Positions 63,422 through 63,679 of a DNA stretch of 64,000 nt are shown here, one piece after another; position 1 is the stretch's first letter, and the number at the start of each line of letters is the position of its first letter. The notes beneath the pieces were generated by a model that was given only the letters and a program-made list of their open reading frames with translations, was not told the origin of the DNA and searched no databases. The stretch is from NCBI RefSeq assembly GCF_003334305.1, contig NZ_QOWS01000009.1; one strand, 5' to 3'. A program made the position numbers and the translations under genes. Origin of the DNA: Escherichia coli (GTDB lineage: Bacteria > Pseudomonadota > Gammaproteobacteria > Enterobacterales > Enterobacteriaceae).

Positions 63422-63679
63422 TTAGTGTTCTCTGGTATCAAATGGTCCGGGCGGGACGGGATCGTCACCACCAGGGTGTAAAGGGTGGCATTTTAATACG
63501 CGTTTCACCGTCAACCAACTGCCTTTTATCACTCCAAACCTGCGCAATGCCTCAATTCCGTAGCTTGAACAGGTTGGAGTGAAACGACAATGCGGCCCGA
63601 GTAGCGGACTAATCAGGCGTTGATAGACCCGAATGAGGGCTATCAGGACCCGCGAGCCAGGCGACAGTGGCGGCGCCAT
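63422..63679 (-). CDS. yidD: Membrane protein insertion efficiency factor YidD (85 aa)
   Basis: Small ORF between rnpA and yidC; overlaps rnpA 3' end. Confidence 0.9.

Follow-up and report, generated by a model that had tools for sequence, protein, structure and literature searches.

Does yidD of Escherichia coli begin inside the 3′ coding end of rnpA, and, if so, does the shared DNA serve any function beyond bringing the two genes close together? The question was raised by a preliminary description of a 64,000-nt stretch of an E. coli contig (NZ_QOWS01000009.1, assembly GCF_003334305.1; hereafter, the window), which claimed an overlap of about 37 nt at 63643–63679. The stretch is the known same-strand rnpA/yidD overlap of the E. 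coli rpmH-rnpA-yidD-yidC-mnmE cluster, which is already contained in the standard annotation. The overlap was confirmed to be real, conserved, and ordinary.

Geometry of the overlap and identities of the genes

The features of the cluster and the tna genes next to it, all on the minus strand, are listed below.

63643..64000, minus: rnpA, encoding the RNase P protein component (C5) (translation, TIGR00188, RefSeq annotation)
63422..63679, minus: yidD, encoding a membrane protein insertion efficiency factor, 85 amino acid residues plus stop (ORF, TIGR00278, PF01809, RefSeq b4557)
63643..63679, minus: region of 37 nt read in two frames (both translations)
63677..63679, minus: yidD start codon ATG (translation)
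63422–63424, minus: yidD stop codon TAA (translation)
63643..63645, minus: rnpA stop codon TGA (translation)
63686..63688, minus: weak Shine-Dalgarno (SD)-like GGA, 6 nt upstream of the yidD ATG (duplex energy with the 16S 3′ end)
61773..63419, minus: yidC, gene for a membrane protein insertase (NF002351, junction sequence)
60303..61667, minus: mnmE, encoding a tRNA modification GTPase, the last gene of the cluster (NF003661, annotation)
59986–60060, minus: tnaC leader
58350–59780, minus: tnaA
57012–58259, minus: tnaB

The 3′ end of rnpA and the 5′ end of yidD share exactly 37 nt on the minus strand (ATGGCGCCGCCACTGTCGCCTGGCTCGCGGGTCCTGA, 63643–63679), as read from the window sequence; the coordinates follow from both ORFs, and RefSeq agrees with them. 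The yidD frame is offset by two bases from that of rnpA (-1/+2 frame), and the shared DNA encodes 12 codons of each protein. An RnpA Leu codon supplies the A of the yidD ATG from its wobble position, and an RnpA Trp codon supplies the TG as its first two bases. As described previously, rnpA is truncated by the window edge, though only 2 nt are gone: 118 of its 119 codons lie inside the window, the missing bases are the A and T of the ATG, and the window copy opens with G-GTT-AAG (VKLAFPRE...).

Identical overlaps are annotated in RefSeq for strain E2865 (rnpA 2999–3358, yidD 3322–3579) and for K-12 MG1655 (b3704, 3884493–3884852; b4557, 3884816–3885073), and, of 5426 complete E. coli genomes, 5425 matched a 701-nt query across the junction at 99% identity or more. 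K-12 MG1655 has the same genes with the same 37-nt overlap, rpmH upstream, and yidC 2 nt downstream, followed by mnmE and tnaCAB, and no difference was found at the locus. The order and orientation of the cluster were as expected, with rnpA, yidD, yidC, and mnmE in the window. The claimed position beside dnaA was borne out by E. coli genomes 100% identical over the matched 701 nt, in which rpmH and the divergent dnaA lie just past the edge. The extension of about 500 bp that had been proposed to recover the missing neighbors would reach the 2 nt of rnpA and also rpmH, which begins 159 nt past the edge, but not the dnaA start codon, which lies about 766 nt past it.

The gene names given in the preliminary description are right for the four cluster genes in the window, whose products all passed curated NCBIfam equivalog cut-offs, applied to the whole-protein score. 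YidD, RnpA, YidC, and MnmE scored 91.4, 127.3, 1098, and 467 bits against TIGR00278, TIGR00188, NF002351, and NF003661, with cut-offs of 40, 38.35, 740, and 380 bits, respectively. PF01809 was precomputed on entries 100% identical to YidD, and the RnpA family corresponds to TIGR00188 and PF00825. Residues 4–114 of the 118 RnpA residues present matched profile positions 2–110 of 111, and the overlapped DNA thus encodes genuine conserved RnpA sequence, since the match reaches residue 114. In YidD, residues 10–71 matched profile positions 2–63 of 64; because the match begins at residue 10, the first nine residues lie outside the family core. The YidD translation carries the Cys-containing core CRFxPTCSxY ... 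KCHP ... GGxDPVP, which is common to distant homologues. A sequence search for a solved structure of any YidD relative found none. YidD aids YidC-dependent membrane protein insertion, according to Yu et al. (2011, J Bacteriol 193:5242) as cited in PMC10502375.

Several other features were recognized elsewhere in the window.

15–1556, minus: complete 16S rRNA gene, presumably rrsC judging from its position on the K-12 map
~17353–17730: oriC, between mioC (16909–17352) and mnmG (17731–19620)
27921–28078, minus: sRNA STnc410 (Rfam, 187.7 bits), between atpC and glmU
31524–37054, plus: four-gene chaperone-usher fimbrial operon (ORFs 31825–32397, 32445–33176, 33201–35723, and 35734–36807)

The oriC region has DnaA boxes at 17375, 17449, and 17555, a cumulative GC-skew minimum nearby, and 22 GATC sites in 950 nt versus 3.7 expected; K-12 annotates oriC at the corresponding place. 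The fimbrial operon has a low GC content (about 46%) and encodes a major subunit (NF011817), a chaperone (NF011818), an usher, and a StgD/LpfD-like tip protein that scored below the cut-off. It fills the 5.5-kb glmS-pstS interval of the window, which comes from a non-K-12 strain; this interval is 313 bp in K-12.

Start codon of yidD and spread of the overlap

An in-frame TAA at 63712 precedes the yidD ATG at 63679, which is the first start codon after that TAA. A different start that would remove the overlap, a possibility raised in the preliminary description, was not found: no ATG, GTG, or TTG occurs in the yidD frame between codons 1 and 45, where only CTG, ATA, and ATT codons are present, and the next of these starts, codon 45, lies within the conserved domain.

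The junction was compared across 80 loci, one per species, which were the best 80 of 499; because of this choice and because the N-terminal peptide MAPPLSPG served as one of the search seeds, the sample is biased toward genomes that keep this start. In this best-scoring set, all 79 non-Orbaceae Enterobacterales species (Enterobacteriaceae, Erwiniaceae, Yersiniaceae, and relatives) had the ATG and an overlap of exactly 37 nt, in agreement with the conserved tight packing claimed previously. The RnpA Leu codon that forms the ATG was TTA in 68 species, CTA in 8, and ATA in 1, and its third base was A in all 77 cleanly aligned species. With G or T at this wobble position, the codon would still encode Leu and yidD would have a usable GTG or TTG start, yet only A occurs. 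However, 15% of the degenerate wobble sites in rnpA and yidD are invariant anyway and are strongly clustered, so that the invariance of a single base is modest evidence, and we have toned down the argument from invariant wobble sites for the start codon and the SD accordingly. Protein-database matches from Morganellaceae, Hafniaceae, Pectobacteriaceae, and other families all start with MA(S/P)(S/P/T).... The YidD entries of 80 residues from Erwinia and Tatumella were considered as a sign of another start and were rejected as such, as their N-terminus is the same and the C-terminus differs.

The yidD wobble sites were less variable in the overlap than downstream of it (entropy 0.35 versus 1.02, p=0.002), as expected for sites that are second-codon positions of RnpA. 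The four-fold wobble sites of RnpA were not significantly less variable in the overlap than elsewhere (0.60 versus 0.75, p=0.29, n=5), and YidD residues 3–11 were loosely conserved (P/S, G/V/S); together, these two observations indicate weak selection on the YidD N-terminal peptide. Selection acts on the start codon and on the C-terminus of RnpA, and only weakly on the N-terminal part of YidD.

A library of representatives at 50% identity yielded 13,258 YidD-family clusters when searched; in the called proteins, the start of the conserved core ranges from residue 1 to beyond residue 100. The genomic contexts seen in nine representatives and the Orbaceae locus are as follows.

Shewanella (L083): dnaA-rpmH-rnpA-yidD-yidC, 34-nt overlap
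Colwellia (L089): short contig with a partial upstream gene, read as an RnpA C-terminus, followed by yidD, 34-nt overlap
Thalassotalea (L092): rpmH-rnpA-yidD-yidC with an uncharacterised divergent gene upstream, 34-nt overlap
Orbaceae (L082): rnpA-yidD, 34-nt overlap provided that the corresponding ATG serves as the start, with a GTG downstream as a possible alternative
Streptosporangiales MAG (L090): rnpA-yidD, 11-nt overlap
Contig with 75% GC (L091): rnpA-yidD, 4-nt overlap (ATGA)
Contig L088: rnpA-yidD, 1-nt overlap
Contig L093: unidentified upstream gene followed by yidD, 1-nt overlap
L085/L086, 1501–1761: yidD after cysS and before a PTPS-family gene, 4-nt ATGA overlap
Firmicute-like contig L087, 965–1273: yidD alone, near luxS and ytzI, no overlap

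The start context xxA-TGG/TGT is common to Shewanella, Colwellia, Thalassotalea, and Orbaceae. In the three Alteromonadales genera, as in E. coli, the yidD ATG takes its A from the wobble position of an RnpA codon, here for Leu or Ile, and its TG from the next Trp codon (..AAG TTA TGG CGC.., ..AAA ATA TGG CGA..), and the Orbaceae junction likewise uses such a wobble A and the TG of the following codon. YidD begins with MA in all three Alteromonadales genera, and the core (L/F)(I/V)(R/K)xYQ is preceded by 13 residues in Shewanella and Colwellia, the same number as in E. coli. The junctions differ from that of E. coli in the overlap length, 34 nt versus 37 nt, which in Alteromonadales is due to an RnpA one codon shorter, and in the sequences of the overlapped peptides. 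As judged from these alignments, an overlap is the rule where rnpA and yidD adjoin, with a lineage-specific length, and the long overlap on this AUG appears in at least three gammaproteobacterial groups.

The junction of Orbaceae bacterium ESL0727 (L082, 3405–3500) retains the ATG in the context AAATTATG. If this ATG is used, its YidD has about 21 extra N-terminal codons relative to that of E. coli, with an unrelated sequence; the true start might instead be a GTG nearer the core, with a gap of about 50 nt in place of the overlap.

The annotated start might nevertheless be wrong, with the real one lying downstream at a non-canonical codon (CTG at codon 12, ATA at codon 13, or ATT at codon 16), in which case there would be no true overlap. 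The late beginning of the TIGR00278 match, the poor conservation of residues 3–11, and the dissimilarity between Orbaceae and E. coli in the region from the ATG to the core speak for such a reading. However, initiation at codons 12–16 would cut into the conserved core, and no conventional start is available before codon 45. The ATG is invariant in the 79 species taken from the best 80 of 499 loci, its codon context is kept in three further orders or families, its distance of 13 residues to the core is the same in E. coli, Shewanella, and Colwellia, and all annotations, including those of the 80-residue Erwinia and Tatumella entries, use this N-terminus. We therefore regard a misplaced start as very improbable. 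In the sources consulted, no experiment was found that bears directly on the N-terminus of YidD or on how its translation is initiated, and the text of the TRAINSPOTTER, Cappable-seq, and SMRT-Cappable-seq supplements contained neither yidD nor relevant coordinates.

Synonymous-site constraint in rnpA, yidD, and yidC

Synonymous sites were mapped over 76 species, with a neutral wobble entropy of about 1.0. Zones of low entropy were found at rnpA codons 1–45 (0.14–0.49), the junction, yidC codons 1–25 (0.2–0.4), and, unexpectedly, yidD codons ~46–70 (0.3–0.4).

Within the last of these zones, the block at 63486–63527 (minus strand, yidD codons 51–65) showed near-total nucleotide invariance across 78 Enterobacterales species and contains six consecutive invariant wobble sites in AAACGCGTATTAAAATGC. 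The block can be read as a candidate sigma70-like promoter, TTGGTT (63513–63518)-17 nt-TAAAAT (63490–63495), from which transcription would be predicted to start about 60 nt before the ATG of yidC; of the candidate -35 element TTGGTT, only 3 of 6 positions match. The yidD-internal block is thus possibly an internal promoter of yidC. An RNA structure joining this block to the yidC start was considered and was not supported, with a covariation term of -0.7, one compensatory pair, and no Rfam match.

At the other end of the map, rnpA codons 1–45 (63868–64000) contained 17 of the 18 wobble sites found invariant upstream of the start of yidD, and their entropy of 0.14–0.49 compared with about 1.0 in codons 46–100. 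A functional mRNA hairpin that involves the AGG codon at 63979–63981 has been reported around the start of rnpA (bioRxiv 10.1101/069385). The constraint on the 5′ end of rnpA would be consistent with this hairpin, most of which would fall beyond the window edge.

The segment ACCAGAGAACACTAACGATGGATTCGCAACGCAATCT (63400–63436), comprising the yidD 3′ end, TAACG, and the first yidC codons, was almost invariant across species. In the same genome recoding work, a yidD AGR codon overlapping the ribosome-binding region of an essential gene resisted replacement with CGU; stop codons were tolerated at this position (bioRxiv 10.1101/069385). We take the resistant codon to be the AGA in 63400–63436, beside the yidC start.

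Translation of yidD and yidC and meaning of the overlap

The ribosome-binding region of yidD consists of GGA followed by an A-rich stretch (GGAAAAATTATG), and the yidC ATG lies 2 nt after the yidD stop codon (TAACGATG). The energies of SD duplexes with the 16S 3′ end were -3.3 and -2.9 kcal/mol for yidD and yidC, respectively, versus a median of -5.6 kcal/mol for 36 genes of the window. The GGA is invariant across species, yet a conserved RnpA Glu codon fixes two of its three bases. No promoter-like site was found inside rnpA or yidD at the threshold of the consensus scan. No conserved RNA structure was detected at the rnpA-yidD junction (fold versus shuffles, z = -0.48; covariation term, -0.01), and no Rfam match at E<=1 was found around the junction and the yidD-internal block. 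A long-range helix between yidD codons 2–5 and the upstream segment GUGGUGGUGGCG in rnpA appeared in a single-sequence fold and was rejected: the fold scored no better than shuffled sequences (z = -0.48), and the consensus of the alignment lacked the helix, showing no compensatory pairs and a covariation term of -0.01.

We consider the best explanation, with a probability of about 0.8, to be that this is the known overlap, with yidD initiated separately at its own AUG and with compact co-expression but no special function. Each step of the mechanism is put forward as a proposal. The cluster has been described as a conserved unit that is driven from rpmH promoters (PMC10502375, PMC10941002, PMC7191817). 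From these reports of a single unit and the lack of an internal promoter at the scan threshold, we infer that rnpA and yidD would be read off one polycistronic rpmH-rnpA-yidD-yidC mRNA. Ribosomes translating rnpA would pass the yidD AUG and end translation 34 nt further downstream, possibly helping by keeping the start region open. YidD would then arise from independent initiation of low efficiency at its own AUG, with the A-rich stretch and the weak SD-like GGA giving modest expression. Ribosomes finishing yidD would stop 2 nt before the yidC AUG, which has a weak SD, a spacing suitable for coupling yidC translation to that of yidD. Compact co-expression aside, the long overlap would most likely serve no special function; it would persist because one or the other of the two proteins constrains each base and because an AUG is needed.

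Alternatively, termination-reinitiation could be the main route to YidD, with ribosomes that have terminated at the rnpA TGA staying on the mRNA and moving back 34 nt to the yidD AUG, and with YidD synthesis depending on that of RnpA. Adjacent rnpA and yidD genes overlap in every sampled lineage (by 37, 34, 11, 4, or 1 nt), as coupled pairs typically do; the SD of yidD is weak; and post-termination scanning models have been described (PMC12548453). The E. coli pair resembles the -4 (ATGA) and -1 (TGATG/TAATG) coupled pairs in that the genes are co-directional cluster neighbors and the downstream one has a weak SD, and rnpA-yidD spacings of -4, -1, and -11 nt occur in actinobacterial-type and other lineages. 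Coupled pairs are, however, marked by a spacing of -4 or -1 nt or a very short one, which describes yidD-yidC (+2 nt) and not rnpA-yidD (-37 nt). More than 80% of overlapping gene pairs share less than 30 bp (review PMC12548453), and the E. coli overlap belongs to the long tail, beyond the coupling range of a reporter series that, as cited in the same review, showed coupling falling as the overlap grew and being absent at -25 nt. Efficient termination-reinitiation coupling at -37 nt is therefore unlikely. In addition, no inhibitory structure that would need to be unfolded was detected. On balance, reinitiation as the main route seems unlikely to us.

A programmed -1 frameshift producing an RnpA-YidD fusion protein would fit the position of yidD in the -1 frame of rnpA, the A5 run just upstream (63682–63686), and a fusion, '...ALEKIMAPPL...', annotated in one E. 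coli assembly (P0001). Yet the rnpA frame (GAA-AAA-TTA) offers no X-XXY-YYZ slippery heptamer, there is no conserved downstream stimulatory structure, and the P0001 fusion is explained by a one-base difference, A6 in place of A5, which would bring the rnpA frame into that of yidD; it occurs in a single assembly out of thousands and is most simply taken as a homopolymer sequencing error. The chance of a programmed frameshift is next to nil. A Salmonella entry, P0010, looks like a frameshift artefact of the same kind. As a further possibility, the frame-locked overlap of 34–37 nt, with its AUG set in the conserved (L/I)-W-R codons of RnpA across at least Enterobacterales, Alteromonadales, and Orbaceae, might be a regulatory device in which rnpA ribosome traffic tunes yidD and yidC by occlusion or delivery, with the block at 63486–63527 acting as an internal promoter or nucleotide element for yidC. 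We think this distinctly improbable. If it were true, the output of the RNase P protein would be linked to that of the membrane insertase.

The overlap annotation is correct, and no change is needed. Changing any of the last 12 codons of rnpA, an essential gene, also alters the YidD N-terminus, and when yidD, which is non-essential, is deleted or recoded, the 3′ end of rnpA and the ribosome-binding region of yidC must be left intact. The comparison adds a small point to the annotation: Enterobacterales share a constant overlap length of 37 nt, and an overlap of 34 nt on the same AUG is found in other gammaproteobacterial orders.
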